From: a virus
Reading direction: 5' to 3' (one strand)
Virus record (IMG/VR): IMGVR_UViG_3300018422_000002
Span: 1 to 64,000 of that record
DNA: 64,000 nt
Positions within the stretch are counted from its first letter, which is position 1. Each line of letters begins with the position of its first letter. The notes beneath the pieces were generated by a model that saw only the letters and a list, made by a program, of their open reading frames with translations, searched no databases and was not told the DNA's origin. Positions 12,975-62,636 of this stretch are shown here, one piece after another. The position numbers and the translations under genes are program-made.

Positions 12975-12993
12975 AGTTGCCTAGCCTCGGCCG

Positions 12994-13134: not shown

Positions 13135-13136
13135 AC

Positions 13137-35397: not shown

Positions 35398-35405
35398 GAG
35401 TGGAC

Positions 35406-37298
35406 ATGGCGTGGCCGTTCCGGCGTCGCTCCTGGACCCGTCAACACGCCGCCGCACCGTTCGTCGCGGACCCAGCGGTGACGTCGCTGGCCGACCTACC
35501 ACCGGTACCTCCCGTCGTGACCGCGACCCAGCCTGAGAGCATGACGGCCGCCGCGCTGGCGCTGACGTCGATGATCGGTGGTCGCCGCGCGCTGGTCCCG
35601 CAGTACGAGTCCTGGCAGCGTGAGCTCTGGGACTACTACGACGAGATGGGCGACTTCGGCTACGCCGTCACGTGGCGCTCGAACATGGTCTCGCGCGTTC
35701 GACTGCGGGCCGGTAAGATCGAGGCCGGCAACGACGAGCCGACCATCGTCGACGACGGCCCCGCCGCCGAGATCGTCGCCGAGCTTTCGAACGACCTGAG
35801 CAGTACCGCCGACCTAATGTCGTCGCTGTCGGTCCACCTGGACATTCCGGGTGAGGGCTGGCTCATCGGTGAGGTCATCAACGGGCGAAACCGCTGGCAG
35901 GTTCGCTCCAACGACGAACTTCGTCGTCGGGTCGAGACGTTCGAGGTGATCAGCGAGACGTCCGCGCTCGGCAACATCGAGTGGCGGCCGCTCGCGCCTG
36001 AGCACTTCATCGTCCGCATCTGGCGACCGCATAAGCGCTACCGTCACCTGCCGTACTCGCCGGCCAAGGCGGCGCGCTCGGCGATGCGTGAGCTGGAGCT
36101 CGCCAACCGTCACATTCAGGCGCAGTACCTGTCGCGCCTCGCGTCGGCCGGCGTCGTCATCTTCCCAGACGAGATCACGTTCCCGGTCCGTCCCGAGTTT
36201 CAGGACGCCGTCGACCCGTTCGTCCGCGAGTGGATCGAGACCGCGTCTGAGGCGATCAAGACGCCGGGTACCGCCGCCTCCGTCGTGCCGATCCCGATCC
36301 GCGTACCCGGCGAGTACATCGACAAGATCAAGCACATCGACTTCACGCTGAAGCTCGACGAGAAGATCATCGAGAAGCGAGACGCGGCGCGACGGGCGCT
36401 CGCGTCGATGATCAACGTCCCGACCGAGCTGCTCTTCGACGCTGGCTCGTTGAACCACTGGGGACTGTGGCAGCTCGAGGAGTCGGCGATCAAGGTGCAC
36501 ATCGCGCCGGACGTCGAGATCATGACCAACGGTCTGACCGTCGGCTACCTTCATCCACGACTGCGCGCGGAGGGCGTCGAGGACTGGGAGGACTGGGTCG
36601 TCTGGTACGACGCGTCCGAGATCATCGCGCGTCCGGACCGGTCGAACAACGTGCTCAAGGCGTACGACCGCTTTGAGGTCAACGGTAAGACGCTACGTCG
36701 AGAGATCGGACTCACCGAGGACGACGCACCCACCGACACCGAGCTGCAGGAGATGGTGCTGAAGCGACTGGCGTCGAACCCACAGATCGGCTTCCTGGTG
36801 TTGCACGAGCTGACCGGTATGCCGCTACCGGAGGAGTACCTGGCGCAGCAGCCGGACACCGACGTCACCGGCCAGCGGAACGCGAACCACCAGCGATCGG
36901 ACGCGCTTCCGGACCGGGACGACGACTACCAGGAGGGCGACGCCGGCTCGACCGGCGCCGACTCGACGAAGGCGCCGGGTGACGACCTCGACAACGTGGC
37001 GGCCCAGGTGGAGCGACGCGACGCGTTCGTGATCCTACAGGCACGATCGCAGCACGTCATGGAGTTCAACGTCACCGGCTGGAAGCTTAAGCACCCGCTG
37101 CTGTGTCAGGAGCACCTGTTCTCGTGTCCGTTCACGTACGCGACTCGCGACGGTGTGACGATCCGACCGGGAACGTCGGGCAACTACGAGTGCTTCCTCG
37201 ACGGCGGCGGCGACGTCCGGATCGGACGTCGAATCTTTGCGCGCGACGACGAGCTGCTGCCTACCGAACCGGAGCGCGTTAATGGCCACCGACGCTAG
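35406..37298 (+). CDS. portal protein
   Basis: ~630 aa, lying between terL and the protease. ATG 35406 lies 5 nt after GGAG, whereas the track start GTG 35400 abuts the SD. Confidence 0.75.
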   Translation: MAWPFRRRSWTRQHAAAPFVADPAVTSLADLPPVPPVVTATQPESMTAAALALTSMIGGRRALVPQYESWQRELWDYYDEMGDFGYAVTWRSNMVSRVRLRAGKIEAGNDEPTIVDDGPAAEIVAELSNDLSSTADLMSSLSVHLDIPGEGWLIGEVINGRNRWQVRSNDELRRRVETFEVISETSALGNIEWRPLAPEHFIVRIWRPHKRYRHLPYSPAKAARSAMRELELANRHIQAQYLSRLASAGVVIFPDEITFPVRPEFQDAVDPFVREWIETASEAIKTPGTAASVVPIPIRVPGEYIDKIKHIDFTLKLDEKIIEKRDAARRALASMINVPTELLFDAGSLNHWGLWQLEESAIKVHIAPDVEIMTNGLTVGYLHPRLRAEGVEDWEDWVVWYDASEIIARPDRSNNVLKAYDRFEVNGKTLRREIGLTEDDAPTDTELQEMVLKRLASNPQIGFLVLHELTGMPLPEEYLAQQPDTDVTGQRNANHQRSDALPDRDDDYQEGDAGSTGADSTKAPGDDLDNVAAQVERRDAFVILQARSQHVMEFNVTGWKLKHPLLCQEHLFSCPFTYATRDGVTIRPGTSGNYECFLDGGGDVRIGRRIFARDDELLPTEPERVNGHRR

Positions 37299-40003: not shown

Positions 40004-41788
40004 ATGGGCGACAAGCCCGAGGAGCTGGTGCACGTCCCGCAGGACCTCACGCTCGTCAGCGACGCGGAGCTCGAGAGCTACGGGACCCAGGCGGTTGCCG
40101 AGTTCGATCGTATCAACGCCATCGCGGACGTTACCTCCGACACCATCCAGTACGGCCTGCGACTCGCCGACGACATCGACCGCGTTCGCGCCGAGGTGGC
40201 CGCGCGTAACGCCCGCGTCGCGCAGCAGGCCGAGGCGAGCCGGGCTAAGCTGCTCAAGGATCAGGCGAACCTGCAGGCTCGCGTTCACGGTGCTGACGGC
40301 GACGCTACCGGCACGCAGACGTCGCCGGACAAGAGCGCGCCCGTCGACGTCGAGGCCATCGCCGCTGCCGCCGCGCGAGGTGTGACCTCCGCGATGGTCA
40401 ACGTGCTGGGTGACCGCGTCGCCGGTCGTGCGCTGACCCAGGTGATCGAACGTCCGTCGCTCGCCGACGCACGTCAGTTCGCACCGCAGGGCGCCGAGGC
40501 ACCGCCGGCTCGACTGTCCGTCACCGCCAGCGTCGACATCCCGGGCGTCGCACGCGGCGAGGGCGTCAACGACCTCGAGCGTATGGTCGACCTGTTCCAG
40601 CGCAAGGCCAAGTCGATGCCGGTCACCAGCGGCAACGAGAACTACCAGCTCGTAGCCTCGATCCGCAACGAGTATGAGCACACCATCGACGATCGCACCT
40701 CGCCGGCCGCCGTGGACGAGCTCATCAAGCACATTACGTCGAGCGACCGGAAGGACGCGCTGGTCGCGGGCGGCGGCTGGTGCGCCCCGTCGGAGATCCG
40801 CTACGACTTCTTCAACATCGCCTGCGAGGACGGTCTCATCGACGTGCCGACGTTCGGCGTGTCGCGTGGCGGCATCTCGTTCCCGACCTCGCCGTCGCTG
40901 GCCGACGTCTTCGGTACGACCAACCAGGCGTTCGGTGGGTTCAGCGTCTCGTTCAACAACAGCTCGATCCCGTGGCTGTGGACCGAGGCCGACGACATCG
41001 CCACCGTCACCGGTGCACCGAACAAGCCGTGCATCCGCGTCCCATGTCCTACCTTCAGCGAGGAGCGACTGGAGTGTTACGGCGTCTGCGTCACCGCCGG
41101 TAACCTCACCGACGACGCGTACCCCGAGGCCACGCGTAACTTCCTGCAGCTGATCATGTCCGCGCACGCGCACGCGATGAACGGACGACTGATCTCGCTG
41201 ATGGCGGCGCGGTCGACGGCGTCCATCGACACCGGTGGGTTCGCCGTGACCGGACAGCCGGTCTACCAGCAGGTGTACGGCGGTCTGTCGCTCGCGGCTA
41301 CCGACTACCGCGCCCGCTACGGCATGTGTCAGGACGACGTCCTCGAGGCGGTCGCGCCCTTCTGGGTCAAGGACACCATCAAGGCCGACCTCGCGTGGCG
41401 CAACGGCGTCGAGGTGCGACAGATCTCGGACGCCGAGGTCAACCAGCACTTCGCCGCGCTGAACATCCGCGTCCAGTGGGTCAACGACTGGCAGGTGCGC
41501 GGCGCCGGTCAGTTCGGTAACGCGACCGCGATGACCGCGTGGCCGACCTCCGCGATCTTCATGCTGTACGCCGCCGGTACGTTCATCCAGGGTAACGGCC
41601 TCGACCTGAACCTGGGCGTCGTCCGTGACAGCGTGCTCAACGCCGAGAACGACCACACCGCCGCCTGGTCCGAGGAGTGTCACCTGATCGCCCGCGTCGG
41701 CCACGAGTCGCGCAGGTACACGATCAACTTCTGCGTCAACGGTAAGACCGGTGCGCAGCTCGCCTCGACCAGTGGTTGCAACCTGTAG
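40004..41788 (+). CDS. major capsid protein (with N-terminal coiled-coil delta/scaffold-like region)
   Basis: 594 aa. AGGAGG upstream. GGGWCAPSE motif. Position after the protease. Confidence 0.8.
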   Translation: MGDKPEELVHVPQDLTLVSDAELESYGTQAVAEFDRINAIADVTSDTIQYGLRLADDIDRVRAEVAARNARVAQQAEASRAKLLKDQANLQARVHGADGDATGTQTSPDKSAPVDVEAIAAAAARGVTSAMVNVLGDRVAGRALTQVIERPSLADARQFAPQGAEAPPARLSVTASVDIPGVARGEGVNDLERMVDLFQRKAKSMPVTSGNENYQLVASIRNEYEHTIDDRTSPAAVDELIKHITSSDRKDALVAGGGWCAPSEIRYDFFNIACEDGLIDVPTFGVSRGGISFPTSPSLADVFGTTNQAFGGFSVSFNNSSIPWLWTEADDIATVTGAPNKPCIRVPCPTFSEERLECYGVCVTAGNLTDDAYPEATRNFLQLIMSAHAHAMNGRLISLMAARSTASIDTGGFAVTGQPVYQQVYGGLSLAATDYRARYGMCQDDVLEAVAPFWVKDTIKADLAWRNGVEVRQISDAEVNQHFAALNIRVQWVNDWQVRGAGQFGNATAMTAWPTSAIFMLYAAGTFIQGNGLDLNLGVVRDSVLNAENDHTAAWSEECHLIARVGHESRRYTINFCVNGKTGAQLASTSGCNL

Positions 41789-42781: not shown

Positions 42782-43453
42782 ATGGCCATCTGCGCGGCCC
42801 CCATCAAGGGATCGCACCTGAGGATCGTCGCGGTCGACGACTGCGGGGTTCCCGTCACCGGGGCCGGATCGTTGACCGTCGTCACCAAGGGCTTCGTCCA
42901 GGTGGTCAGCGAGCCGGACTACGAGGACGGCGAGGAGTTCGTCGAACGGAACGCGGACGGTGAGCTCTGCGTCAACCAGAAGGATCGACCGTCGCTGAAG
43001 CGCTTCGCGCTGACCGTCGACTGGTGTGAGGTCGACCCCGTACTCGCCGCGTACGTCATGTCCGCGCGCCTGCTGGACACCGCGTCGCCGGCCGTCACCG
43101 GTACCGGCTGGGCGATGTCCGAGGGCGAGCCGGACAACAAGTTCTCCATGGAGGTCTGGCAGCGCGTCGCCGGCTCCGGCGCGTGCGATCCGTCCGGCGT
43201 CCAGCGGTACATCTACAACGCGTGGCCTCACGTCGGCAACACGCAGGTCGGCTCGTACACGATCGAGAACGCCCGGTCCACGCTTCAGTTCATCGCAGAG
43301 ACGTTCCCCGCGTCCGCGACGTGGGGCGACGGTCCGGGAACGACGTCGTGGTTGCCGGTAGGTACGCTCATCGAGGACACCGAGCACTGGGCCTGGAACA
43401 TTACCACCGAGCCACCGCCTACCCCGGCGTGCGGCCCGACCACGCTGACGTAG
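42782..43453 (+). CDS. virion structural protein (role unknown)
   Basis: 223-aa ORF in the head/tail module. GGGAG upstream. Confidence 0.6.
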   Translation: MAICAAPIKGSHLRIVAVDDCGVPVTGAGSLTVVTKGFVQVVSEPDYEDGEEFVERNADGELCVNQKDRPSLKRFALTVDWCEVDPVLAAYVMSARLLDTASPAVTGTGWAMSEGEPDNKFSMEVWQRVAGSGACDPSGVQRYIYNAWPHVGNTQVGSYTIENARSTLQFIAETFPASATWGDGPGTTSWLPVGTLIEDTEHWAWNITTEPPPTPACGPTTLT

Positions 43454-50875: not shown

Positions 50876-51534
50876 TGACCGGACCACTTGAGCTCGGTCA
50901 GGTGCTCGCGCAGGCGCACTCGGCCGCCAACACACCGGCGACGGTCGACTTTCACATCGGTCAGGTCATCTTTTGGGACAGTGACACGGCGACCAACAGC
51001 GTTCGTGTGCTCGGTACCATCATGCAGAACCTACCGGTCCTGACGTCCGCCGGCTCGGTCGGTCTGGAGAACGGCATCGCCGTCGGCATCCTTAAGGTGC
51101 GGACACAGTACTTCATCCTCGGCCGGATCGTCGACCAGAGCTCGGGGTTGGTCAACCCACAGTTCCCGATCATCCTCTACCCGATCTTCATATCGAACGG
51201 GACCGCCAGTACGTTGGGACAGTCACGCGTCAACACCGGTGTCCTGGCCACGTGGGAGGGTCGGATCAAGGTGACGTTCCCATACGTCGAGATCGACGGT
51301 GTGTGGGGTAACCTCAGCGGTAGCGGTTCGACGACGTATGAGATCAAGCTCGGTGGCAACACCGTAGGTAGCTGGACAGAGACGACGTTGACCGTGGCAC
51401 GTCGAGGCCCGTTCGACATCACGGACTACATCGGTCAGGACTGGTTGAAGATCGAGCTCGCGATCACCGTGAGTACTGGTACCGGCGAGAAGGCGATCCA
51501 GCCACTGGGTTGCTACTTCCGCGACACGCAGTAG
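50875..51534 (+). CDS. minor tail protein
   Basis: 219 aa, directly after the tape measure gene. Confidence 0.65.
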   Translation: MTGPLELGQVLAQAHSAANTPATVDFHIGQVIFWDSDTATNSVRVLGTIMQNLPVLTSAGSVGLENGIAVGILKVRTQYFILGRIVDQSSGLVNPQFPIILYPIFISNGTASTLGQSRVNTGVLATWEGRIKVTFPYVEIDGVWGNLSGSGSTTYEIKLGGNTVGSWTETTLTVARRGPFDITDYIGQDWLKIELAITVSTGTGEKAIQPLGCYFRDTQ

Positions 51535-51543
51535 GGAGAAGAC

Positions 51544-52968
51544 GTGGCCTGCTCGCTGACGTACGACGACCAGCTCTCACGCGTGCGGATCGACGCGGAT
51601 GGACTGTGCGTCACCGGCTACGCTGACACATTTACGCGGATAGAGAGCAACGGCTGGGGCGCCGCCGACACGGGTCAGACGTACACCGTGATCGGCGACG
51701 CGGCGTCGAACTACCTGGTCACCGGCGGCGCGGGTCATCACGAAGGTGATACCGAGAACGTCTTCTACAACTCAGTGCTGCCGATCGGCTCACCCGACTG
51801 CGACTACCGCGTGTCGTTCCAAACGAACAAGCTCGCCGTCGGCAACGCACAGGTCGTCGAGGTCTCTGGTCGGTTCACCGACATCCTGAACATGTACGGC
51901 GTTCGTGTCTTGATCAACACCAACCAGACCATCGAGTTCGACCTACGAAAGCGCGTCGCCAACGTACAGACCGTGCTCGATACCGTCGTCACGTCACTGA
52001 CACACGCCGCCAGCACCACCTTTCGTGTTCGTCTCCAACTCGCCGGAACGACCCTACGAGGTAAGATCTGGTTGGCATCCGGTACGGAACCCGACGCGTG
52101 GACGGTCGAGGCCGTCGACGGCGACCTCACGACCGGCGATAACATCGCACTGCGATCGATGGTTCCGACCGGAACGTCCAACGAACCGATCCAGTACTCG
52201 TTTGACGACCTCGACTCGATCAATGTGACGCACGCGGTTGTGGAACGATCGACCAACGGGGTCAACTACACGATCGTGCGTGGTGCGTCGGAGGTCGGTG
52301 TCACCACCGGTTGCGAGCTCGAGCGGATCGTCGACGACTACGAGTTTCCCGTCGGTCAGCTGGTGACGTACCGCGTAAGCAGTGTGTCCGAGGACGGGAC
52401 GACCGTGGCGTCGACGACGTGTCAGATAACCGTGAACCTCGACGACGTCTGGATCAAGAGCATCGGTAGGCCGTTCCTCAACCAGGTGCTCAACTGCGTC
52501 GGCAACCCAACGCCGGTAACACGTCGGGCACGTAACAACATCTCACCGATCGTCAACCGTAGCTTTCCGGTGGCGGTGACCGACGTCCGTGGGTCGCGTG
52601 AGCTCCCCCTACCGGTGATCACGCGAACCACCCAGGAACGCGAGGACCTCGACCTACTGCTCGCGTCCGGTGACCCCGTGTTTCTTCACGCACCGGCCGG
52701 TCACCCGCTGCCGACCATGTACGCGGTGATCGAGGACACCATCGAGGCACGTCCGGTGCGTAACCGGAACTGCGACAACGACTGGCGACTGTTCACGTTA
52801 CCGCTCGTCGAGGTGGCCGCACCGGGACCCGACGTGGTGGGCAGTACGAGCACCTGGCAGACGGTGCTCAACACATACGCCACGTGGGCCGACGTACTGA
52901 TGGCGCACCCAACGTGGGCGGACCTACTGGAGTTGATCGGCGACGGTAACGAGGTCATAGTTCCATGA
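51544..52968 (+). CDS. minor tail protein
   Basis: 474 aa. GGGAGAAG upstream. Confidence 0.65.
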   Translation: MACSLTYDDQLSRVRIDADGLCVTGYADTFTRIESNGWGAADTGQTYTVIGDAASNYLVTGGAGHHEGDTENVFYNSVLPIGSPDCDYRVSFQTNKLAVGNAQVVEVSGRFTDILNMYGVRVLINTNQTIEFDLRKRVANVQTVLDTVVTSLTHAASTTFRVRLQLAGTTLRGKIWLASGTEPDAWTVEAVDGDLTTGDNIALRSMVPTGTSNEPIQYSFDDLDSINVTHAVVERSTNGVNYTIVRGASEVGVTTGCELERIVDDYEFPVGQLVTYRVSSVSEDGTTVASTTCQITVNLDDVWIKSIGRPFLNQVLNCVGNPTPVTRRARNNISPIVNRSFPVAVTDVRGSRELPLPVITRTTQEREDLDLLLASGDPVFLHAPAGHPLPTMYAVIEDTIEARPVRNRNCDNDWRLFTLPLVEVAAPGPDVVGSTSTWQTVLNTYATWADVLMAHPTWADLLELIGDGNEVIVP

Positions 52969-52981
52969 GTAGGCATGCATC

Positions 52982-54106
52982 ATGAGACCGGTAAGCGACG
53001 CGTTTCTTCGTACCCTGGCGGGCAGTCACCGAATCTTCTCTCGCGTCAAGGTCCTGACGTCGTTTCAAAGCGGTGTGATGCCGACGGGTACGGAGATCCC
53101 GATCGTCGACGGCAACGTGCGCGCCGACGCGGCGTCGGATACCCGAACGACGCTGGACCTGACGACGAGCGGCGACGGTATGTGGCCGTTGCGAACGACG
53201 GACCTACTGGCGCCGTACGGCAACGAGCTGTTCGTCGAGCGCGGCGTCGACTACACCAACGGCACGGTCGAGATCGTCAGCCTCGGCTACTTTCGCATCA
53301 ACGAGACCAACCAGGCGGACGGTCCCAACGGTGAGATCCAGCTGACCGCCAGCGACCGGATGTCGAGCATCATAGACGGCAGGCTGCCGTTTCCGAGGCA
53401 GTACGTGGCCGGAACGTCGGTCGAGACCGTGTTCGAGGAACTCGTCCAGGAGATCTATCCGAGCGCGACGATCGAGTTTGACTTCAACGCAGCGGCGTCG
53501 ACGTTCGACACGGCGCACGTCGTCGAGGAGGATCGCTACGGGTTCCTACACGACGTCGCGCAGTCACGCGGAAAGATCATGTACTGGGACTACCGAGGCG
53601 TACTTCGCGTCGAGAGTCCTCCCGACCCGGCCACACCGGTCTACACGATCAACGCTGGACGCAACGGCACCATGATCTCACTATCGCGAAAGTTGACGCG
53701 GCAGGGCGTCTACAACGCGGTCGTCGCCAGCGGCGAGGCCACGCCCGATCAGCTGCCGGTGACGTCGTTGGTGATCGACAACAACCCCAACAGCCCGACC
53801 TACTGGAACGGTAGGTTTGGGCGTGTCCCACGGTTCTACTACTCACCGTTCATCACCACCGTCGCGGCGGCGACCTCGGCGGCGACGTCGATCCTACAGC
53901 AGGCGATAGGGCTGCCGTACAGCATCAACCTCAACGCGGTTCCTAACCCCGCGCTGGAGCCGTACGACGCGATCGAGATCGTCGCACCGGACACGACGGA
54001 CATCCACGTCATCGACTCGATCATCATCCCGTTGAGCACCAGCGGTGTCATGACCGGTACGACGCGTAAGTTGATCACCTTCACCCAGAACGAACAGCTC
54101 GCGTAG
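52982..54106 (+). CDS. minor tail protein (DUF5047-like N-terminus)
   Basis: 374 aa. The N-terminus VSDAFLRTLAGSHRIFSRVKVL resembles a recurrent actinophage tail-protein N-terminus. Confidence 0.65.
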   Translation: MRPVSDAFLRTLAGSHRIFSRVKVLTSFQSGVMPTGTEIPIVDGNVRADAASDTRTTLDLTTSGDGMWPLRTTDLLAPYGNELFVERGVDYTNGTVEIVSLGYFRINETNQADGPNGEIQLTASDRMSSIIDGRLPFPRQYVAGTSVETVFEELVQEIYPSATIEFDFNAAASTFDTAHVVEEDRYGFLHDVAQSRGKIMYWDYRGVLRVESPPDPATPVYTINAGRNGTMISLSRKLTRQGVYNAVVASGEATPDQLPVTSLVIDNNPNSPTYWNGRFGRVPRFYYSPFITTVAAATSAATSILQQAIGLPYSINLNAVPNPALEPYDAIEIVAPDTTDIHVIDSIIIPLSTSGVMTGTTRKLITFTQNEQLA

Positions 54107-54117
54107 CGGAGGACACG

Positions 54118-54690
54118 ATGCCTACCACACCGACGTACGGTCTGCCGTACCCACAGTTGTCCGATCCACCAGACGGTCCCGCGCAGTTCCAGGCGCTCGC
54201 CGACGAGGTCGAGGTTGAGCTGACCCGCGTCGACGCGCGGATCGCCAACGGTGAGCAGCTGCTGGCCGGCTTCGCCGCACCGACGCAGACTGGCAGCGGC
54301 ACGCTGTCGGTCGGTGGAACGGGTGCGACCATCATGACGGTCGCCATCGCGGATCCGGGATTCTCATACTACATCATCGCGGGCGGCTCGATAGGATGGG
54401 CCGTGATCGCCGCGACGTCGCCGGGTAACCTCCTGGAGGGATCTGTCACGATCGACTCGACCACCTACACCACGAACCGACTGGCAGGCGGGTTCAGCAT
54501 CTCACACTCGCTTGGTGCGGGGTTCACGCAGCCGACGCTGGTCGTTCCGGTTAAACGAAGTGACTCGTTCGGCGTTCTCAGCGGCGCACATACCGTTCGA
54601 CTGATCGCACGCAACTCCGGCGGTACCAACATGACGATTCCGGCGAGTGGCGTGGATACGACGCTGACGGTGCGTATCGTAAGGTCGTAA
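54118..54690 (+). CDS. minor tail protein
   Basis: 190 aa. The N-terminus PTYGLPYPQLSDPPDG is typical of actinophage minor tail proteins as I recall them. Confidence 0.6.
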   Translation: MPTTPTYGLPYPQLSDPPDGPAQFQALADEVEVELTRVDARIANGEQLLAGFAAPTQTGSGTLSVGGTGATIMTVAIADPGFSYYIIAGGSIGWAVIAATSPGNLLEGSVTIDSTTYTTNRLAGGFSISHSLGAGFTQPTLVVPVKRSDSFGVLSGAHTVRLIARNSGGTNMTIPASGVDTTLTVRIVRS

Positions 54691-54691
54691 C

Positions 54692-55375
54692 GTGATCTCC
54701 GTACTGCTTCCTACGCGTGGTCGACCCACGAACGTCGCGCGACTACTGTCGTCGGCGTTCGACACGTCCGAGACCGAGGTAGAGTTCGTCCTCTACGTCG
54801 ACGAGGACGACCCACTGGGTGACCAGACGCTCGACGTCGCAGCGCGTGAGGGCGCGACGGTTAAGATCGGTCCTCGCGTGACGCTGTCCGAGATGTGGAA
54901 TGAGTGCTGGAAGCTGGCCCGGTTCGACGTCGCGATGCACTGCGGCGACGACATCATCTTTAGGACGCCGGACTGGGACGTCCGCGTCCTCGAGGCGTTC
55001 GACCGCTACCCGGACCGGATCGCGTTCGTCCACGGCCGTGACGGCTTTCAGGACGCTAGGATCGGCACGCACGGATTTCTTCATCGTTGCTGGATCGAGA
55101 CCGTCGGCTACATGGTGCCGCCGTACTTCAGCAGTGACTACAACGACCTGTGGGTGACTGAGGTTGCTGACATGTTGGGACGTCGTGTCTACCTACCGAA
55201 CGTCTACACCGAGCACATGCATCCGGTCGCCGGTAAGGGTGAGTGGGACCAGACACACCAAGAGCGACTTTTACGTCATCAACGAGATAATGTTGATCAA
55301 CTTTATCGATCACTACATGCTGAACGTATTAGTGATGTCGAAAAGTTAAAAGCAGCGATTGCAAAACATGAATAA
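54692..55375 (+). CDS. glycosyltransferase (GT-A/GT2-like)
   Basis: ISVLLPTRGRP...VEFVLYVDEDD. The last ~38 codons lie in low-GC DNA. Confidence 0.65.
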   Translation: MISVLLPTRGRPTNVARLLSSAFDTSETEVEFVLYVDEDDPLGDQTLDVAAREGATVKIGPRVTLSEMWNECWKLARFDVAMHCGDDIIFRTPDWDVRVLEAFDRYPDRIAFVHGRDGFQDARIGTHGFLHRCWIETVGYMVPPYFSSDYNDLWVTEVADMLGRRVYLPNVYTEHMHPVAGKGEWDQTHQERLLRHQRDNVDQLYRSLHAERISDVEKLKAAIAKHE

Positions 55376-55907
55376 GTTGATCGTAGAGGTAGGTCAACGG
55401 TTCAATCGCTGGACGGTTCTCGGTGAGTGTCGTACTAGTCCTACGGCTTCGTTACCTCGTGGACGTCGAGGCGCTAGATGTCAATGTGACTGTGGTGTTA
55501 TCCGTGTGGTTGCGCTAATTAATCTCTTTGGTAGATCGCAGTCCTGTGGTTGTCTACGTAGTGAAGTAGTAGGTAGATTAAATAGGCAACTTAAGGCTAC
55601 ACAGATCCGAACTCATGGGTTATCACATTCATATCTCTACACGACGTGGCGTGGTATGATGAGAAGGTGCCACGAGGTAGGTAGTACGAACTATGAGTAC
55701 TACGGGGGTCGTGGCATTAAGGTAGATGAATCTTGGCACGACTTTAAGATCTTTGTCGATTACGTGCTTACTGAGCTAGGTGAGCGACCTACCGGATGTA
55801 CGCTTGATCGAATCAACAACGAAGGTTGCTACGAACCTAACAACGTACGTTGGGCGGATCGGTCAACACAACGCCGTAACAGTCGTCCACGACGAAGGCG
55901 AAGTTAA
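55368..55907 (+). CDS. HNH_3-like (degenerate) DNA-binding/nuclease-like protein in a low-GC island
   Basis: CQCDCG...SCGC, YGGRGIKVDESW, and LDRINNEGCYEPNNVRWADRSTQRRN. A/T-rich codons. Confidence 0.55.
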   Translation: MNKLIVEVGQRFNRWTVLGECRTSPTASLPRGRRGARCQCDCGVIRVVALINLFGRSQSCGCLRSEVVGRLNRQLKATQIRTHGLSHSYLYTTWRGMMRRCHEVGSTNYEYYGGRGIKVDESWHDFKIFVDYVLTELGERPTGCTLDRINNEGCYEPNNVRWADRSTQRRNSRPRRRRS

Positions 55908-55908
55908 G

Positions 55909-56595
55909 TTGGGTACGACTGGGTTTAACTACGCGGGCGCGGTGCGCTACCGACCTGACGAGGTGATCCTCGAGGTGGGTAGCGGCGAGTCGACGTTTCA
56001 CCTTGCCGAGGTCGGATCGCCCGTCGTGACGATCGACGTGAACGCCGTGACGGCCAACTGGGTGTCGACGTTGGATAACGTTGAGGTACGTCACGGTCGC
56101 GCCGAGGACGTGCTTCGTGACTGGAACCGACCGATCGGGTTCGCCTGGTTGGACGGTCACGACTGGCCATACACCGGTAACCTACCTGGGTACTATCACG
56201 ACCAGCGGGTGCACTACGAGAGCACCGGCCTTCCGTACTCGCAGGACGCGAGTCGTCGCTCACACCTCGCCGTCGCACGACTGATCGTCGATCACGCCCG
56301 CGTGATCGCGTTCGACGACACGTGGCGAACCCACGCGTATCGTGCGACCGACGACGGGTGCGGCGAACCGGTACCACCGGCTACGACACCGGCTCCCGCG
56401 CTCGCGATGAACGAGCCCATCAACCGATCGACCTGCGGACTGACGGCAGACCACCCACATCACGACGACCCAGATCGCGGCTGGAACGGTAAGGGCGGCA
56501 CCGCGATACCGTACCTACTGGAGCGTGGCTTCGAGGTCGTCGAGTACGGCCTAGGCCTGGTGGTACTTCGGCGAACCGAGGACGGTGCGACGTGA
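55909..56595 (+). CDS. class I SAM-dependent methyltransferase-like protein
   Basis: ORF 55780..56595 trimmed to TTG 55909, just after the upstream stop (start uncertain). Contains ILEVGSGESTFHLA and GFAWLDGHDW. Confidence 0.5.
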   Translation: MGTTGFNYAGAVRYRPDEVILEVGSGESTFHLAEVGSPVVTIDVNAVTANWVSTLDNVEVRHGRAEDVLRDWNRPIGFAWLDGHDWPYTGNLPGYYHDQRVHYESTGLPYSQDASRRSHLAVARLIVDHARVIAFDDTWRTHAYRATDDGCGEPVPPATTPAPALAMNEPINRSTCGLTADHPHHDDPDRGWNGKGGTAIPYLLERGFEVVEYGLGLVVLRRTEDGAT

Positions 56596-57230
56596 CGTGG
56601 ACCATCCTAGTGGCGACGCTCGGCCAGCGCGCCGCGCGCTTCGAGCGCCTACTGTCACAGCTGCTACCGCAGACCGAGTCCTACGACGGTGCGGTGACGG
56701 TCTGCGCGTTCTACAACCACGGTGAGCGACCGCTCGGCTACGTTAGGCAGGCGCTGGTCGAGCACGCGACGTCGGACTACGTCTCGTTCGTGGACGACGA
56801 CGACGAGCTGCCGGACTACTTCGTCAAGGAGGTCGTCTCGAGGCTCGGCGACGTCGACTACGTCGGCTGGCAGATGCAGTGCTACGCGAACGGCGTCACC
56901 CTAAAGCCGACCTACCACAGCCTGCGCTACGACCACTGGTGGGACGACAACGACGGGTACTACCGCGACGTCAGTCACCTAAACCCGGTTCGCACCGAGC
57001 TGGCGCGACGTGGGGACTTCAGACGCGGGGCGCCACCGGAGGACGTCAGCTGGGCCGACCAGGTTAGGCCACACGTGCACACCGAGGCGTACGTCGATCG
57101 GATCATGTACCACTACCACGCGTCGTCCGGTGACTCGACGTGGCGTGGTGACGGCGTTCAACGCGTGTGGCACCTACGGCCACACGTGGATCATCCTTAC
57201 TTCTCCTACCACCCAGAGAGCAGCGAGTGA
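56592..57230 (+). CDS. glycosyltransferase family 2-like
   Basis: WTILVATLGQR...YVSFVDDDDELP (DxD). GTGA overlap. Confidence 0.7.
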   Translation: MTWTILVATLGQRAARFERLLSQLLPQTESYDGAVTVCAFYNHGERPLGYVRQALVEHATSDYVSFVDDDDELPDYFVKEVVSRLGDVDYVGWQMQCYANGVTLKPTYHSLRYDHWWDDNDGYYRDVSHLNPVRTELARRGDFRRGAPPEDVSWADQVRPHVHTEAYVDRIMYHYHASSGDSTWRGDGVQRVWHLRPHVDHPYFSYHPESSE

Positions 57231-58207
57231 CTAGGACCGTTCTCGTTACCGGCGTCGGTGGCTTCGTCGGTAGTCACGTCGTCGAGGTGTTGCTCGAGCG
57301 CACCGACTGGCACGTCGTCGGCGTCGACTCGTTTCGACACAACGGTGACTTCGTCAACCTCGTGAACGCGGCCGAACACGATACGTCGCGCGTCGGCGTC
57401 GTCGTTCACGACCTGACGGTACCGTTCACGGCGCGTCGTCTTCGTGAACTTAAGGACCTCGACGTCGACTACGTGATCAACGTGGCCTCACGGTCGCACG
57501 TCGACGAGAGCGTCCGCGAGCCGGTCGACTTCGTCCTCAACAACGTCCAGCTCGGTCTCAACGTGCTCGAGCTGTGTCGCGTCATCAACCCACGTCGTCT
57601 ACTGCACATGTCCACCGACGAGGTGTACGGTCCAGGAGGCGGAGGCACGACCGAGCATCGTCCGTCCAGCCCGTACGCCGCGTCGAAGGCAGCTCAGAAC
57701 GATCTCATCTGGGCGTACGCGCGAACGTACGACGTCCGCGCGACCGTCGTGGTCAGCGCCAACATGTTTGGTGAACGCCAGTGTGACACGGCCTACGTTC
57801 CGCTGGTCGTTAGGTCGCTGCTCGCCAGACGTGAGCTCAACGTGCACTACGCCGGTGATCGACCGGGCGAACGAAGTTACACGTACGTCGTCAACGTCGC
57901 GCACCGGATCGTAGACGAGCTGCTCGTCGACGCCGAGCGTGATCAGCTGGGATCGGGTAGCGTCGACTACGTCACGCTGACCGGTCAGCGGCGGATCGAC
58001 AACCTCACGCTCGCCAGCCGGATCTCGAACATCGCCGGACTTCCGCTCGAGGTACGCGTGGTCCAGGGGACGACGTCGCGTCCCGGGTACGACCCCACGT
58101 ACGCGTCGCTGGACGACGTGTGGACACCGCGCGTCGACCTCGACGAGGGGCTTAGACGGACCGTGCGCTGGGGACTCGCGCACTACGCCGACGAGGACGA
58201 CCGATGA
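57227..58207 (+). CDS. NAD-dependent nucleotide-sugar epimerase/4,6-dehydratase
   Basis: VLVTGVGGFVGSH (GxxGxxG), STDEVYG, and YAASKAAQ (YxxxK). GTG 57227 in a GTGA overlap. Confidence 0.85.
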   Translation: MTRTVLVTGVGGFVGSHVVEVLLERTDWHVVGVDSFRHNGDFVNLVNAAEHDTSRVGVVVHDLTVPFTARRLRELKDLDVDYVINVASRSHVDESVREPVDFVLNNVQLGLNVLELCRVINPRRLLHMSTDEVYGPGGGGTTEHRPSSPYAASKAAQNDLIWAYARTYDVRATVVVSANMFGERQCDTAYVPLVVRSLLARRELNVHYAGDRPGERSYTYVVNVAHRIVDELLVDAERDQLGSGSVDYVTLTGQRRIDNLTLASRISNIAGLPLEVRVVQGTTSRPGYDPTYASLDDVWTPRVDLDEGLRRTVRWGLAHYADEDDR

Positions 58208-58773
58208 ACGATCGACTGACGTTAGCCTCACGTCACGACGAGGTGTACGACTGGGCGGGACTACACGTTCGTGACCTGGTACGTGCGCGGCACGGTACCA
58301 CGGCAACCGTCCTCGACGTCGGCGCGGGACGCGGTAAGTACCGACTGCTGCTTCACGACTACCCAGACGTCGACGCCTGCGAGGTCTGGGCGCCGACCGT
58401 CGACGCCGAGAACCTACGGTCGCTCTACCGGTTCGTTCACGTCTGCGACGTCTACGACCTGGTGACGTCGTCGAACTGGAACGACGTGTGGTACAGCGTG
58501 GTGATCATGGGCGACGTGTTAGAGCACATGACGGTCGAGCGCGCGACGGCGGCACTTGAACGGCTCGGCGAGCGTAGCACGACCGTGATCGTCGTCGTAC
58601 CGTACCTCTACCCGCAGGACGAGGAGGACGGTAACGTCTACCAACGTCACATTCAGGACGACCTGACGCCGGAGCAGATGACCGTCCGCTACCCGACGCT
58701 GCGGCTGATCGCGGTAGAGACGCGAGGTCACCGTCCGTTTAAGGGCGTCTACGTGAGGAGTGGTAGTGAGTAA
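58204..58773 (+). CDS. class I SAM-dependent methyltransferase
   Basis: VLDVGAGRGKY motif I and VIMGDVLEHM. Confidence 0.75.
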   Translation: MNDRLTLASRHDEVYDWAGLHVRDLVRARHGTTATVLDVGAGRGKYRLLLHDYPDVDACEVWAPTVDAENLRSLYRFVHVCDVYDLVTSSNWNDVWYSVVIMGDVLEHMTVERATAALERLGERSTTVIVVVPYLYPQDEEDGNVYQRHIQDDLTPEQMTVRYPTLRLIAVETRGHRPFKGVYVRSGSE

Positions 58774-59977
58774 GGTCGGCTGGATCGGGCTCGGTAAGCT
58801 TGGTGGTCCGTGTGCCGCCGCGCTGGCGCACCACGGATCGCACAAGGTCTGGGGCTACGACGTCCGTGGTACGGACGCGGCGGACTACGACTTTGCCGGG
58901 CTGCCACCGGTCGAGTTGACCGAGACGATCGACGACGTGGTTCGAAACACCGGTGGCGTGATCTACGTCGCCGTCCAGACACCACACTCGTCGACGTACG
59001 GCGGCGAGGTCCCGGTGCCCGCCGAACCGCGTGAGTTCGAGTACGCGTACCTGGTCAACGCCGTGCGTGCCGTCGTCCAGGCGGCGGATCGACAGCGCAA
59101 GGACGTCACGCTCGTCGTGGTCTCGACCGTGCTACCCGGCACGTTCGATCGCCTGCTGCGCCCGCTGGTCGGACCGAGCGAGTACGTGATGGCCGTCTAC
59201 CACCCGTTCTTCATCGCCATGGGAACGGTCGTCCAGGACTTCATCCGACCGGAGATGACCCTGTTCGGCGCCGACGATCCGACCGACGTCGACGACGTGC
59301 GTGAACTCTACCGGCCGATCCACGAGGCGCCGGCACCGATCATGTCCGTCGCGTCCGCCGAGCTGACGAAGGTCGCCTACAACACGTTCATCAGCATGAA
59401 GATCGTGTACGCGAACCTGCTCGCCGAGATGTGCGACGCCACGGGTGCCGACGTCGACGAGGTCACCGACGCGCTGGCGCAGGCGACCGACCGGATCATC
59501 TCGTCACGCTACCTCCGCGCCGGCATGGGGGACGGTGGCGCGTGTCACCCACGTGATAACGTGGCGCTCTCGGCGCTCGCCCAGCGACACGGACTGTCGT
59601 CCGACCTGATGGGCTTCCTCAACGGCGCACGCGACCGCCAGGCCTACCGGTTCGCCGACCTGATCGAGCACTGGCACCGGCTGACCGGCCTGCCCGTGGT
59701 GCTGCTCGGCCGGTCGTACAAGCCCAACGTCAACCTCACGGACGGCTCGCCGGCCCTGCTGCTGGCGCACGCGCTGGTCGACCTGAACATCGCGTTCAGT
59801 CACTACGACCGCGTACCCATCGTCGATCGACCGGCTGTGTTCTTCGTCGCGACCGCGCACGACGAGTGCGCTAGGTTTCCGTACCCACCGGGCAGCGTCG
59901 TGATCGATCCGTTCGGGATCGTCCCAGCGAGCGTCGACACGTCCTACACGTTGGTCACACCGGGGAGAAGGCGGTGA
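58766..59977 (+). CDS. nucleotide-sugar (UDP-glucose/GDP-mannose type) 6-dehydrogenase
   Basis: VGWIGLGKLGG, ELTKVAYNTFISMKIVYANLLAEMCD, and GGACHPRDN. GTG 58766 lies 5 nt after GAGGAG. Confidence 0.85.
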   Translation: MSKVGWIGLGKLGGPCAAALAHHGSHKVWGYDVRGTDAADYDFAGLPPVELTETIDDVVRNTGGVIYVAVQTPHSSTYGGEVPVPAEPREFEYAYLVNAVRAVVQAADRQRKDVTLVVVSTVLPGTFDRLLRPLVGPSEYVMAVYHPFFIAMGTVVQDFIRPEMTLFGADDPTDVDDVRELYRPIHEAPAPIMSVASAELTKVAYNTFISMKIVYANLLAEMCDATGADVDEVTDALAQATDRIISSRYLRAGMGDGGACHPRDNVALSALAQRHGLSSDLMGFLNGARDRQAYRFADLIEHWHRLTGLPVVLLGRSYKPNVNLTDGSPALLLAHALVDLNIAFSHYDRVPIVDRPAVFFVATAHDECARFPYPPGSVVIDPFGIVPASVDTSYTLVTPGRRR

Positions 59978-60609
59978 GCGACGTCACGGTCTGCGTGCCG
60001 ACCATTCCCGCGCGCGAGGACCTACTTCGTCGCGCACGAACGTCGGTCCAGCAGCAGACGTACGCGTGCGACCTGTCCGTCTACCTCGACGAGAGCGGCG
60101 ACGGCGCGGCGACCACGCGCAACCACGCGTGGCAGCAGGCCGAGACCGACTGGGTGGCGTTCCTGGACGACGACGACGTCCTACGACCGGACCACGTCGA
60201 GCTCTGCCGGCAACGTGCGCTGGACACCGGTGCGGACCTGGTGTACCCGTGGTTCAACATCCACAACCACGGGGGTAACGACATCACGGCCAACGACCCC
60301 CTGCGCGTACCGGTCGACGGACACTACGTGTCACCCTACGGCGTGATGTTCAACGATGACCTACGACGCGAGCTCATGACCCGCAACAACTTCATTCCAG
60401 TGACCGTGCTGGTCCGACGTAGTCTGCTCGAGGACGTCGGTGGCTTTCCGATCCCCGGCACACCTGAGTGGGGGGACGACTGCTGCGAGGACTGGGGACT
60501 GTGGCGTCGCCTGCTGAACGTGGGGGCGCGGTTCGAGCACCTACCGCGTCGCACGTGGATCTGGACGTGGCACGGGGCCAACACGTCCGGTCGCTCCTGG
60601 AGGAGGTAA
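59974..60609 (+). CDS. glycosyltransferase family 2-like
   Basis: VTVCVPTIPAR...WVAFLDDDDVLRPDH. GTGA overlap. Confidence 0.75.
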   Translation: MSDVTVCVPTIPAREDLLRRARTSVQQQTYACDLSVYLDESGDGAATTRNHAWQQAETDWVAFLDDDDVLRPDHVELCRQRALDTGADLVYPWFNIHNHGGNDITANDPLRVPVDGHYVSPYGVMFNDDLRRELMTRNNFIPVTVLVRRSLLEDVGGFPIPGTPEWGDDCCEDWGLWRRLLNVGARFEHLPRRTWIWTWHGANTSGRSWRR

Positions 60610-60610
60610 C

Positions 60611-61711
60611 GTGAGGGTAGCGGTGTACCCGGCCGACCGCTGGGGATGTGGGCACTTGCGCATGATCTGGCCGGCGGAGGTACTTCGTCGGCAGGGCCAC
60701 GACGTCGACATCGTGACCGCGCAGAACCGACACCTTGAGATGGTCGTCGACAACCGCGACGACCGCGTGGTCGACGTCCGCGTACCCGACGGCGTCGACG
60801 TCGTCGTCTTACAGCGCGTTACGCACCGCTACCTGACGCAGGCCATCACGGTGATGCGTGAGAGGGGTGTCACGGTCGTCGTGGACGTCGACGACGACCT
60901 CAGCACGATCCACCCGGACAACCCCGCGTGGCAGCACCTTCATCCTAAGGCGGACGAACGTCGCCTAGGTAGGAACGTCGGCATGCACACGTGGACCCAC
61001 CTAGGCCAGGCGTGTCGCGCGGCGTCGCTGGTCACCGCGACGACCCCCGCGCTGGTCGAACGCTACGGACACGGGCACGGCGTCGTCCTACCGAACTACC
61101 TGGCGGATCACTACTTCGCCACGACACACGTCGACTCGGACGTCCTGGGTTGGCCCGCGTCGCTACGGTCGCACCCGAACGACCCGGCGGTCGTCGGCAA
61201 CGCCGTCGCACGACTGGTGGACGCCGGCTACGCGTTCCGGGTGCCCAGCGTCGCCGAGGACGTCGGTCGCGCGTTCGGGCTCGGCGGTGACGAGGCCGTC
61301 CAGCGCGTCGAGCATACGGTGCCGCTGTACGACTGGCCGGACGAGCTGGCACGACTGGGCGTCGGCATGGCGCCGCTGGCCGACACGAAGTTCAACGCGG
61401 CTAAGTCGTGGTTGAAACCACTCGAGCTATCGGCCGTCGGCGTGCCGTGGGTCGGTTCGCCGCGCGCCGACTACGTCCGTCTTTATCAGCTGGGCTGCGG
61501 CGTACTGGTTGATCGACCAAAGGACTGGTTTCGCGTGCTGAGATCGCTGCTGACGGACGAACGACGTCGGTCTGAACTGTCGGACGCCGGACGCGCGGTA
61601 GCCGCTACGTTGAGGATAGACGACCACGCCTGGAGGTGGGCCGAGGCGTGGTCGGACGCCCTCGCGCGCGATCGAGGACGGTCGCGCGCGACGACGGTCG
61701 TCGCTCAGTAG
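60611..61711 (+). CDS. glycosyltransferase (GT-B-like)
   Basis: 366 aa. GGAGGAGG upstream. Two Rossmann-like halves are suggested (weak call). Confidence 0.55.
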   Translation: MRVAVYPADRWGCGHLRMIWPAEVLRRQGHDVDIVTAQNRHLEMVVDNRDDRVVDVRVPDGVDVVVLQRVTHRYLTQAITVMRERGVTVVVDVDDDLSTIHPDNPAWQHLHPKADERRLGRNVGMHTWTHLGQACRAASLVTATTPALVERYGHGHGVVLPNYLADHYFATTHVDSDVLGWPASLRSHPNDPAVVGNAVARLVDAGYAFRVPSVAEDVGRAFGLGGDEAVQRVEHTVPLYDWPDELARLGVGMAPLADTKFNAAKSWLKPLELSAVGVPWVGSPRADYVRLYQLGCGVLVDRPKDWFRVLRSLLTDERRRSELSDAGRAVAATLRIDDHAWRWAEAWSDALARDRGRSRATTVVAQ

Positions 61712-61715
61712 ACGA

Positions 61716-61735
61716 CGCCGGCTAGGTAGCCGGCG
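61716..61735. terminator. convergent-junction hairpin
   Basis: CGCCGGCTA-gg-TAGCCGGCG. Lies 5 nt after the stop at 61711. Confidence 0.45.
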
Positions 61736-61883
61736 CACGAGACCAGTAGGACCAGTAGGGACAACGCGACCAGTAGGGCGCGCCAGTAGCGCAGCACAGC
61801 GTTCCTTTATCATCATCGTAGTTCCGGCGAACGACGCAACCGTATCGGAACGACGGTCGCGTCGTTCGCCGGTACAGAACACG

Positions 61884-62636
61884 CTACGACGTGATCTGAC
61901 GTCGTTCGGTAGTCGGCTGCGTATCGCCTACGTCGGCACGTCTACCGGCATCGTAGCCGGCATCGGCGGCCGATCGGACGCCCGGCTTCAGTCGCGTCTT
62001 GATGGTACGCAGCTGATAGTTGGCCTCCAGGTAGACGTCGACGTCGGCACGTCGGTGCGCCAGCGCCAGTGCGGTCGACTCGTCGATACCCAGTGCGACG
62101 CGACGTGCCTCCTCGATTCGGTTCTGCGCACCGATCACGAAGTTCATCAGGAACTGCCGCCGAGCCTTGTAGCCGGCCATGCCACGTAGGTGGGCACGTT
62201 CCTCGGAGTCGTTCCACCAGTCGCGCATCGCCGTCATGGCCTGCACGAGCAGCGACGTGATCAACATCTTCAGATAGCGCACCTCGCTCTTCGCGCCGAC
62301 CAGGACGACGTACTCGGTGGCGCCGTCCTTCACGGTGAACGATCGCCCGGACGTGTGATACACCGTCGCCAGCTGGTTGAACCGCACGGCGAGCGCGACC
62401 CGGTAGATGCCGGTGAGCTCCACCCACTCGGACTCGATCGGCTCGCGCTCGGCGAACGACCTCGTGATCGCCAGCTTAGCCGCGTCGATGCCGTACTTGA
62501 GGATGATTCGTTCGGCGTTGGCGAGGGTCGAGTCGGCCTCGCCGTCGTCACCGCGACTCCGCAGGTCCTTCGCGCGGTCGAGCAGCAGCTGGACGCGACG
62601 CTCCATGCCCTGTAGATCGTTCTCGGTCGTGGTCAT
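61884..62636 (-). CDS. DUF2786-like protein
   Basis: 250 aa. N-terminus RVQLLLDRAKDLRSRGDDGEADSTLANAERIILKYGID resembles DUF2786. Confidence 0.65.
   Translation of the reverse strand: MTTTENDLQGMERRVQLLLDRAKDLRSRGDDGEADSTLANAERIILKYGIDAAKLAITRSFAEREPIESEWVELTGIYRVALAVRFNQLATVYHTSGRSFTVKDGATEYVVLVGAKSEVRYLKMLITSLLVQAMTAMRDWWNDSEERAHLRGMAGYKARRQFLMNFVIGAQNRIEEARRVALGIDESTALALAHRRADVDVYLEANYQLRTIKTRLKPGVRSAADAGYDAGRRADVGDTQPTTERRQITS

Follow-up and report, generated by a model that had tools for sequence, protein, structure and literature searches.

Our analysis concerns a 64,000-nucleotide stretch of viral DNA (positions 1 to 64,000 of IMG/VR record IMGVR_UViG_3300018422_000002, hereafter the window), and in particular a cassette of genes, directly behind the tail genes, whose predicted products activate, transfer and methylate sugars. 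A sequence-only reading of this DNA had described nine genes at 54692-61711, and all nine are plus-strand open reading frames (ORFs) lying where that reading had put them. Eight are enzymes: four glycosyltransferases (GTs; GT_A to GT_D), two methyltransferases (MTs; X228 and MT2), a 4,6-dehydratase of the short-chain dehydrogenase/reductase (SDR) type and a nucleotide-sugar 6-dehydrogenase (DH); the ninth is an HNH-type homing endonuclease gene (Table 1). The searches used Pfam, PHROG, NCBIfam, PDB profiles, hhalign, AlphaFold2 (AF2) models and Foldseek, and every family assignment of the sequence-only reading held up when compared by profile, motif or fold.

Predicted enzymes of the cassette

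GT_A begins one nucleotide beyond the stop of the last tail gene (54690 to 54692), and the genes that follow are separated by gaps of a single nucleotide or overlap by 4-14 nucleotides (56592/56595, 57227/57230, 58204/58207 and 59974/59977), as is typical of a single operon with translational coupling. On an identical contig, independent metagenome gene calls place the starts of the SDR (57227) and of the dehydrogenase (58766) at these same positions. Scanning the plus strand from 50000 revealed no terminator-like site before 61788, where a weak hairpin is the only such site in 50000-62500; nor was a promoter-like site of its own seen for the cassette, which lies inside the late structural operon. 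This layout shows the cassette to form one predicted operon with the tail genes. No membrane segment was detected in any cassette protein, there being no 19-residue window with the hydrophobicity of a transmembrane helix (the maximum, 1.78, falls on a Rossmann strand of the SDR), and the defence-system models of PADLOC gave zero matches for these proteins.

Table 1. Cassette genes and structural features of the window, with predicted functions.
Feature	Length (amino acids)	Position	Strand	Basis or remark
GT_A, GT-A/GT2-like glycosyltransferase	227	54692..55375	+	phrog_14945 at 1e-42
HNH-type homing endonuclease gene		55368..55907	+	phrog_374 at 5e-49; ORF opens with TTG at 55359, ATG at 55368
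X228, class I S-adenosylmethionine (SAM) methyltransferase fold, sugar-O-methyltransferase-like	228	55909..56595	+	AF2 model and Foldseek
GT_B, GT2 glycosyltransferase	212	56592..57230	+	PF00535 at 2.6e-7, 31.2 bits (cut-off 23.3); phrog_14775 at 3e-43
SDR, RmlB-like nucleoside diphosphate (NDP)-hexose 4,6-dehydratase	326	57227..58207	+	PF01370 at 1e-42
MT2, class I SAM-dependent methyltransferase	189	58204..58773	+	Pfam domains of homologues; profile match to PDB methyltransferases
DH, nucleotide-sugar 6-dehydrogenase	403-405	58766..59977	+	PF00984 at 2e-22 (79.5 bits); PF03721 at 1e-12 (48.4 bits)
GT_C, GT2 glycosyltransferase	211	59974..60609	+	PF00535 at 9e-13, 48.9 bits (cut-off 23.3)
GT_D, GT-B fold, GT4-like glycosyltransferase	366	60611..61711	+	phrog_7162 at 7e-27; AF2 model
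Weak terminator-like hairpin		61788..61803	+	3' of last cassette gene, in convergent gap before minus-strand genes; consensus match only
Large terminase		32704-34059		structural region
Portal		35400-37298		structural region
Major head protein	594	40004..41788	+	phrog_777 at 5e-129; C-terminus ...NGKTGAQLASTSGCNL
Major tail (tube) protein		42782..43453	+	phrog_792; Thr-rich C-terminus ...NITTEPPPTPACGPTTLT
Tape measure protein	986			structural region
Minor tail proteins		extend to 54690		immediately 5' of the cassette
Last tail gene	190	54118..54690	+	left boundary of the cassette; preceded by tail protein phrog_1887

Three of the glycosyltransferases had been read as GT2-like enzymes with DxD motifs, and matches to PF00535 and PHROG families, together with hhalign comparisons, agree with this. 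The motifs CGDDI (GT_A), VDDDD (GT_B) and LDDDD (GT_C) are invariant across 12-15 relatives; GT_A, in which both a DDD and a GDD motif (the latter in CGDDI) are conserved, scores 16.6 bits against PF00535 and so falls under the cut-off of 23.3. Over its full length GT_A aligns with the N-terminal domain of Pas34 from Actinoplanes phage phiAsp2 (hhalign probability 100%), and GT_B is 42% identical to Pas33 of the same phage and aligns with the N-terminal domain of gp108 from mycobacteriophage Che8 (99.3%). GT_C aligns with Che8 gp108 (91.7%) and with Corndog gp37 (83.9%).

The larger GT_D, which had been called GT-B-like, gave no match to the PDB by sequence, even as a profile, and its similarity to PF13524 is sub-threshold (20.8 bits, cut-off 25); its family was settled by fold. 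The AF2 model (predicted local distance difference test score, pLDDT, 86.7) indicates a GT-B fold of two Rossmann domains. Foldseek matched it to the retaining GT4 enzymes MshA, BshA, PimA and ManT (the methylmannose-polysaccharide mannosyltransferase) with template modelling (TM) scores of 0.64-0.67, and to uncultured-phage proteins annotated as 'Glycosyl transferases group 1' at 0.77. When the sequence was read by eye, the canonical first Glu of the EX7E motif was not evident. Judged by family membership, the three GT-A-fold enzymes would be of the inverting type and GT_D of the retaining type.

Both methyltransferases predicted by the sequence-only reading were borne out, X228 by its fold and MT2 by the profile of its homologues, though both go unrecognised in the curated libraries (Pfam, PHROG and NCBIfam) and single-sequence PDB searches with either returned nothing significant. 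For X228 the AF2 model (pLDDT 88) is closest in Foldseek to the M. hassiacum sugar O-methyltransferase MeT1 (6G80/6G7D, E 1e-6), followed by WbdD and EvdMO1, which are likewise sugar O-methyltransferases. It matches many SAM-dependent methyltransferases with a Foldseek probability of 1.0 and a TM score of about 0.5, at which level the model supports a class I methyltransferase fold and only suggests a sugar substrate. The protein carries a glycine-rich motif I (ILEVGSG) and a TID motif. The database call for this gene, a 271-residue ORF that starts at 55780 and overlaps the HNH gene by 43 codons, was made without recognition of the HNH gene; as the 76 homologues are about 227 residues long, 55909 is to be preferred as the start. 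Distant homologues of X228 (about 200 residues, 37-43% identity) are found in other 95-kb phages as isolated genes surrounded by small early genes, with no GT nearby (locus L085, 10001-10603), so the family is not restricted to glycan cassettes. Among the 168 homologues of MT2, many carry PF13489, PF08241 or PF13649, and their profile matches the PDB methyltransferase 3cc8 at 1.5e-5; the motifs LDVGAGxGKY and MGDVLEH are present, and E60 is invariant. MT2 and X228 thus both display the features of the class I fold, and use of SAM is predicted for each.

Between GT_A and X228 lies the gene that had been noted as an HNH-like insert. Its GC content is 0.48 and its third-position GC (GC3) 0.40, against a GC3 of about 0.8 in its neighbours, and the closest relative lacks it, GT_A there directly adjoining the X228 homologue. 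By all appearances it is a recent selfish insertion that lies outside the pathway. A single mobile unit comprising the HNH gene and X228 was also considered and was rejected, since the closest relative has X228 without the HNH gene.

Of the two nucleotide-sugar enzymes, the SDR had been taken for an epimerase or 4,6-dehydratase. Its best PDB matches are dTDP-glucose 4,6-dehydratases (2hun at 2.7e-31), and the motifs GxxGxxG (GVGGFVGS), STDEVYG (which holds the Thr-Asp-Glu triad) and YxxxK (YAASK) can be aligned with RmlB structures and do not vary among 12 relatives. We therefore call it RmlB-like, its nucleotide and sugar specificity being predicted at family level only. The alternatives of a UDP-glucuronate decarboxylase or a 4-epimerase acting downstream of the dehydrogenase were rejected on account of the triad and of the top structural relatives, which are 4,6-dehydratases. 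The assignment of the second enzyme as a nucleotide-sugar 6-dehydrogenase is upheld by its two Pfam domains and by a catalytic Cys within GGACHPRD, which aligns to UDP-glucose dehydrogenase and is invariant in 15 relatives; the best PDB matches are UDP-glucose and GDP-mannose dehydrogenases. All eight enzymes appear from these comparisons to keep intact catalytic motifs.

Relatives and their gene layouts

The cassette is not unique to the window and recurs in many metagenomic actinophage contigs of 80-110 kb. About 12 loci from IMG/VR and metagenomes keep GT_A, GT_B, the SDR and DH together, most of them with MT2 as well, and in these loci the conserved set is found only beside structural genes, either past the tail genes or directly upstream of the terminase. 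In the tail-end layout (the window, L004/L087, L084 and L088) the entire set lies 3' of the tail genes; in the terminase layout (L003 and L005-L011) the order GT_C-GT_A-GT_B-SDR-MT2-DH stands immediately upstream of the large terminase, and contigs of this kind keep GT_D at the end of the tail operon (L091 and L108). The closest relative, an 89.9-kb Joint Genome Institute (JGI) contig, has the order GT_A, X228, GT_B, SDR, MT2, DH, GT_C, GT_D. By homology the set is conserved across a large phage clade.

Methyltransferase content varies between these loci. The window and its closest relatives have both X228 and MT2, L004/L087 has MT2 only, and L084 has X228 only and is without MT2; in L088, which is also without MT2, the X228 slot between GT_A and GT_B is occupied by an unrelated class I methyltransferase of 249 residues (12423-13172, motif VLDFGCGVG). 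This modularity fits what is expected of an exposed, diversifying surface structure.

GT_D is the most conserved and most widespread member of the cassette and constitutes its core, to which the other genes are added as an accessory set that is modular and movable. More than 951 homologues of GT_D were counted, the best 120 listed of which are 56-86% identical to it. One of them, in L091 (11176-13413), is 745 residues long and is interrupted at the invariant FNAAK|SWLKPLE motif by an intein with a Cys start, a His-Asn|Ser end and a homing-endonuclease-like middle. An intein in a phage glycosyltransferase is unusual, and its position is taken to mark this motif as functionally critical; together with the high conservation it suggests that GT_D matters to the phage. 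In the same phage group, the large-terminase match of L006 (11963-13500) falls in two pieces and may represent another intein or an intron.

In Streptomyces-associated elements GT_D is the sole cassette member detected within 10 kb of GT_D, at the tail end. Homologues of 46-56% identity lie between the tail genes and a reverse-strand WhiB gene in Streptomyces and Micromonospora assemblies (L111-L126). Several of these sit in isolate genomes, on contigs of 92-110 kb, and others are embedded in contigs of 280-446 kb, which suggests that related phages persist in, or integrate into, Streptomyces; isolates with related elements on contigs of 92-110 kb include S. africanus NRRL B-24243 and Streptomyces sp. 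A012304.

The idea of an eight-gene cassette has to be modified in the light of these relatives. All eight enzymes are present, but they are not one fixed unit: a GT4 core is joined to an accessory module that is located elsewhere in relatives, and the methyltransferases vary. Nothing can be concluded from the remark that the cassette occupies the place where many actinophages keep their lysis genes, as most of the set lies upstream of the terminase in relatives. The window ORFs scanned included no lysin, so lysis genes were not located in the window.

The comparison also indicates that the cassette is less exceptional than it first looked, since metagenomic phages commonly have it and pairs of SDR and GT4 genes are present in Streptomyces and Arthrobacter phages in culture. 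Streptomyces phages Zuko and KimJongPhill (gp4-gp5) and Arthrobacter phages Racecar, Mimi and Atuin encode homologues of the SDR (about 35% identity) and of GT_D (26-30%), to which Racecar adds a GT_A homologue and a nucleotidyltransferase; unlike the cassette, these sets are minimal or dispersed. Phage phiAsp2 resembles the window in having a GT, a fusion of GT and O-methyltransferase, and a second GT (pas33-pas35) directly past its tail genes, but this set has three genes only, and no SDR, dehydrogenase or GT4 homologue was detected in it. No homologue of the 6-dehydrogenase or of X228 was found in the cultured or deposited actinophages searched. In Streptomyces phage Annadreamy (L153, 57524-59248) a GT_A homologue, gp76, is accompanied by a second GT and a heptose-type nucleotidyltransferase, and this cluster, about 3 kb before the terminase, has resolvase, exonuclease, deoxynucleoside monophosphate (dNMP) kinase and phosphatase genes around it.

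The predicted glycan and its likely acceptor

The sequence-only reading proposed a bespoke methylated glycan with its own nucleotide-sugar tailoring and drew a link to the glycosylated virions of mycobacteriophages. It named virion proteins, the host envelope and phage DNA as possible targets, rightly in our view. We consider both the glycan and the link reasonable, and propose that the cassette is expressed late and acts in the cytoplasm to attach a methylated heteroglycan to virion proteins, a proposal to which we give about an even chance of being correct. In such a pathway the 6-dehydrogenase would convert a host NDP-hexose, probably UDP-glucose, to a uronic acid, and the RmlB-like dehydratase would separately convert NDP-glucose to an NDP-4-keto-6-deoxyhexose, which host enzymes of the RmlC/RmlD type may finish. 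As a dehydratase and a 6-dehydrogenase cannot share the same C6, at least two special donor sugars are probably supplied. GT_D and the three GT2-like enzymes with DxD motifs would then add sugars stepwise to an acceptor, giving a short heteroglycan in the cytoplasm, and the two SAM-dependent methyltransferases would O-methylate or cap the chain. The acceptor would most likely be the virion (tail tube, capsid or tail proteins), as in Che8 and Corndog, and the outcome a lineage-specific methylated glycan coat.

The virion is favoured as acceptor because both layouts couple the genes to the late structural operon, with no plus-strand terminator-like site to separate them from it in the window, and because the genes of Che8, Corndog, phiAsp2 and Zuko likewise lie in or beside head or tail genes. 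Che8 108-110 precede the terminase across the genome ends, Corndog 35-38 lie between portal and protease, phiAsp2 pas33-35 directly past the tail genes and Zuko gp4-5 directly upstream of the terminase. Che8 gp108-110 and Corndog gp35-38 are like the cassette in combining soluble phage GTs with a methyltransferase, and remote homology links both GT_B and GT_C to the GT domain of Che8 gp108, and GT_C to Corndog gp37 as well, which again argues for a virion acceptor. The modular methyltransferase content points the same way. Further support comes from the virions of these two phages, which, according to papers citing Freeman 2023 (PMC12619734, PMC12363180 and PMC11600133), bear glycans made by phage GTs on the C-termini of capsid and tail tube; Che8 gp110 and Corndog gp38 are reported in papers citing Freeman 2023 to be essential for capsid glycosylation. 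In comparison with those of Che8 and Corndog, the predicted functions of the cassette are extended by an enzyme of GT4 fold, a further methyltransferase and two nucleotide-sugar enzymes, the 4,6-dehydratase and the 6-dehydrogenase.

The major tail tube protein and the major head protein may be regarded as candidate acceptors. The tail tube C-terminus is Thr-rich and ends ...ACGPTTLT in the window (43390-43453), and the pattern WxWN(I/V)TT...AC(G/D)PTTL(T/AA) is conserved there, in L108 (about 3290-3355) and in the Streptomyces-associated L113 (about 180-240); this is compatible with an acceptor role but proves nothing.

Several observations weigh against a virion glycan made in this way. The cassette is tied to virions by analogy and by gene position, and soluble GTs can work on lipid-linked wall polymers too. 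Che8 gp110 and Corndog gp38 gave hhalign probabilities below 3%, or no match above 50%, against the profiles of GT_A to GT_D, and no relation was detectable between the window methyltransferases and the O-methyltransferase Corndog gp35. Capsid and tail tube proteins of Che8 and Corndog end in ...GS, DGS, GDS or ...DS, whereas those of the window end in ...GCNL and ...PTTLT, and a comparison of these C-termini found no shared motif. The GT_A homologues of cultured Streptomyces phages of the BE cluster adjoin a nucleotidyltransferase and lie among DNA-metabolism genes (dNMP kinase, exonuclease and resolvase). As regards the donor sugars, the SDR matches the RmlB equivalog TIGR01181 at 3e-46 but with 157.9 bits, far under the cut-off of 365.1, and the dehydrogenase scores 166.4 bits against TIGR03026, just under the cut-off of 189.8; the C-terminal nucleotide-sugar-binding domain PF03720 gave no match in the window dehydrogenase and a faint one in relatives. 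With both enzymes under curated cut-offs and the dehydrogenase without a recognisable C-terminal nucleotide-binding domain, their substrates are uncertain. Finally, the cassette contains no 4-ketoreductase or epimerase to complete a deoxysugar pathway.

There is a parallel for the whole set of activities among the giant viruses. Chloroviruses and mimivirus have nucleotide-sugar enzymes of their own, 4,6-dehydratases among them, along with GTs and methyltransferases, and with these they make unusual methylated capsid glycans in the cytoplasm. These viruses have eukaryotic hosts and unrelated capsids, and we know of no homology to the cassette demonstrated beyond the level of enzyme superfamilies.

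A different role for the same enzymes would be to remodel the host envelope, in the manner of TarP from staphylococcal prophages, by modifying, within an infected or lysogenic cell, a lipid-linked or nascent wall glycopolymer (teichoic, teichuronic acid-like or arabinogalactan-like), so that the receptor is masked and superinfection excluded, or progeny are spared adsorption to debris. Phage-encoded GTs that alter surface glycans are well known from the Gtr cassettes and from S. aureus TarP, and enzymes of the TarP type need no membrane segments. The fold matches of GT_D include the wall-polymer enzymes TarM, PimA and WaaG, and NCBIfam weakly matches DH and GT_C to TuaD and TuaG, two teichuronic-acid enzymes. 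Distant GT_D homologues (30-38% identity) occur in the chromosomes of Blastococcus, Geodermatophilus and Modestobacter, and the presence of related elements in Streptomyces isolate assemblies makes a carrier or lysogenic state possible. Against this, genes of the Gtr and TarP type are morons expressed in lysogeny, whereas the cassette lies in a late operon, a poor time to alter the envelope of a cell near lysis, and has no promoter-like site of its own. The membrane flippase, bactoprenol GT and polytopic GT that a Gtr-type system requires have no counterpart among its proteins, none of which has a transmembrane helix, and neither a polyprenyl-phosphate transferase nor any other membrane protein is encoded in the cassette. 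The genes stand beside structural genes in every relative and never in a moron or lysogeny region, and no integrase or repressor was seen in the part of the window ORFs that was scanned. We judge this explanation unlikely.

Hypermodification of the phage DNA, in which a methylated, uronic-acid-containing glycan on a modified base would counter restriction, strikes us as distinctly improbable. Its models are the glucosylated DNA of the T-even phages and the hypermodified DNA of Bacillus phage SP-15, which has a glucuronolactone-bearing base; SP-15 also encodes a UDP-glucose dehydrogenase homologue. The company kept by the BE-cluster GT_A homologues points in the same direction, and phage GTs that glycosylate DNA are diverse (Pyle 2024, as cited in PMC12619734). 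The window ORFs of at least about 180 amino acids that were scanned include no thymidylate-synthase-like hydroxymethylase or base kinase, although about 29 kb of the 93-kb genome lie outside the window. The cassette is co-oriented and coupled with tail genes rather than replication genes, and four GTs with two methyltransferases would make an unusually long glycan for DNA.

Least probable of all is a small molecule or free oligosaccharide as the target, for instance a host metabolite such as an anti-phage antibiotic of an actinomycete, inactivated by glycosylation or methylation, or a cytoplasmic polymethylated oligosaccharide like the methylmannose polysaccharide of mycobacteria and Streptomyces, to whose pathway both MeT1 (the closest fold to X228) and ManT (among the matches of GT_D) belong: dTDP-glucose 4,6-dehydratases with sugar methyltransferases are typical of actinomycete deoxysugar pathways, and MT2 shows sub-threshold similarity to sugar N-methyltransferases, but such structural matches are unspecific within the GT4 and class I methyltransferase folds (the TM score of X228 being only about 0.5), GT2-type enzymes are not the usual natural-product GTs, the cassette has no aminotransferase, ketoreductase or nucleotidyltransferase, and the strict linkage to structural operons would be left unexplained.

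Returning to a glycan on virion proteins, we offer a tentative extension that seems to us possible, if somewhat doubtful: GT_D may be a clade-wide virion-protein O-glycosyltransferase, important enough to harbour an intein, and the accessory set a swappable 'glycan serotype' module, for the large group of uncultured Streptomyces-type soil phages of about 90-110 kb, each lineage of which would thereby get a methylated coat of uronic acid and deoxysugar peculiar to it.

The source phage and wider implications

The DNA of the window is that of a phage, with a tail and head gene set present. A near-identity search against 50,697 phage records found no match, and in a distant search the sole DNA-level match in the phage collection was 300 bp of the glycosyltransferase gene pas33 of phiAsp2. 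A stretch identical to the window is found on metagenome contigs of 45 and 93 kb, and the window is accordingly part of an uncultured phage genome of about 93 kb. This phage is likely to be an actinobacterial siphophage with Streptomyces or a related actinomycete as its host; the GC content of the window (0.63-0.73), a WhiB gene downstream of the cassette and the GT_D homologues found in the same position, between tail end and WhiB, in the Streptomyces and Micromonospora isolate assemblies all count as signs of an actinobacterial host.

Elsewhere in the window, positions 1-24000 hold mostly reverse-strand, small genes at a GC of about 0.68-0.74, against 0.63-0.67 in the structural region at 30000-64000, and include a Prim-Pol/D5 helicase at 7702-10275. 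An 852-residue protein at 37237-39795 has an N-terminal region that matches RNA-ligase (2H-like) PHROGs, fused to a region with matches to prohead protease and portal-associated families. The last tail protein, at the left edge of the cassette, keeps about 40 N-terminal residues among relatives, and its C-terminus is variable.

Phage-encoded virion glycosylation, small cassettes of GTs and methyltransferases past tail genes, as in phiAsp2, and pairs of SDR and GT4 genes were already known; what distinguishes the window is the combination of four GTs, two methyltransferases and two nucleotide-sugar enzymes in one place, together with the core-plus-accessory architecture across a large uncultured clade. 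To our knowledge, it is only recently that glycosylation of phage virions was demonstrated, in no more than a few mycobacteriophages whose operons have GTs alone or GTs and a methyltransferase. Our findings suggest that many uncultured actinophages produce donor sugars of their own, a uronic acid and a 6-deoxy-4-keto hexose, and then methylate what is made from them, in a way reminiscent of the giant viruses that infect algae and amoebae. Should the particle be what carries the glycan, the cassette would provide a tractable family of soluble GTs that may act on protein, together with sugar methyltransferases, GT_D would serve as a marker for glycosylated phages in metagenomes, and these phages would offer a test case for the role of glycan coats in soil. 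Were the target instead DNA or the host wall, the cassette would be an unusually elaborate example of either. If the idea of a glycan serotype module is true, particle glycosylation would be an ancient, widespread and diversifying phage trait with a natural role unrelated to antibodies, which might be particle stability, adhesion to soil or hyphae, or the avoidance of host surface traps.

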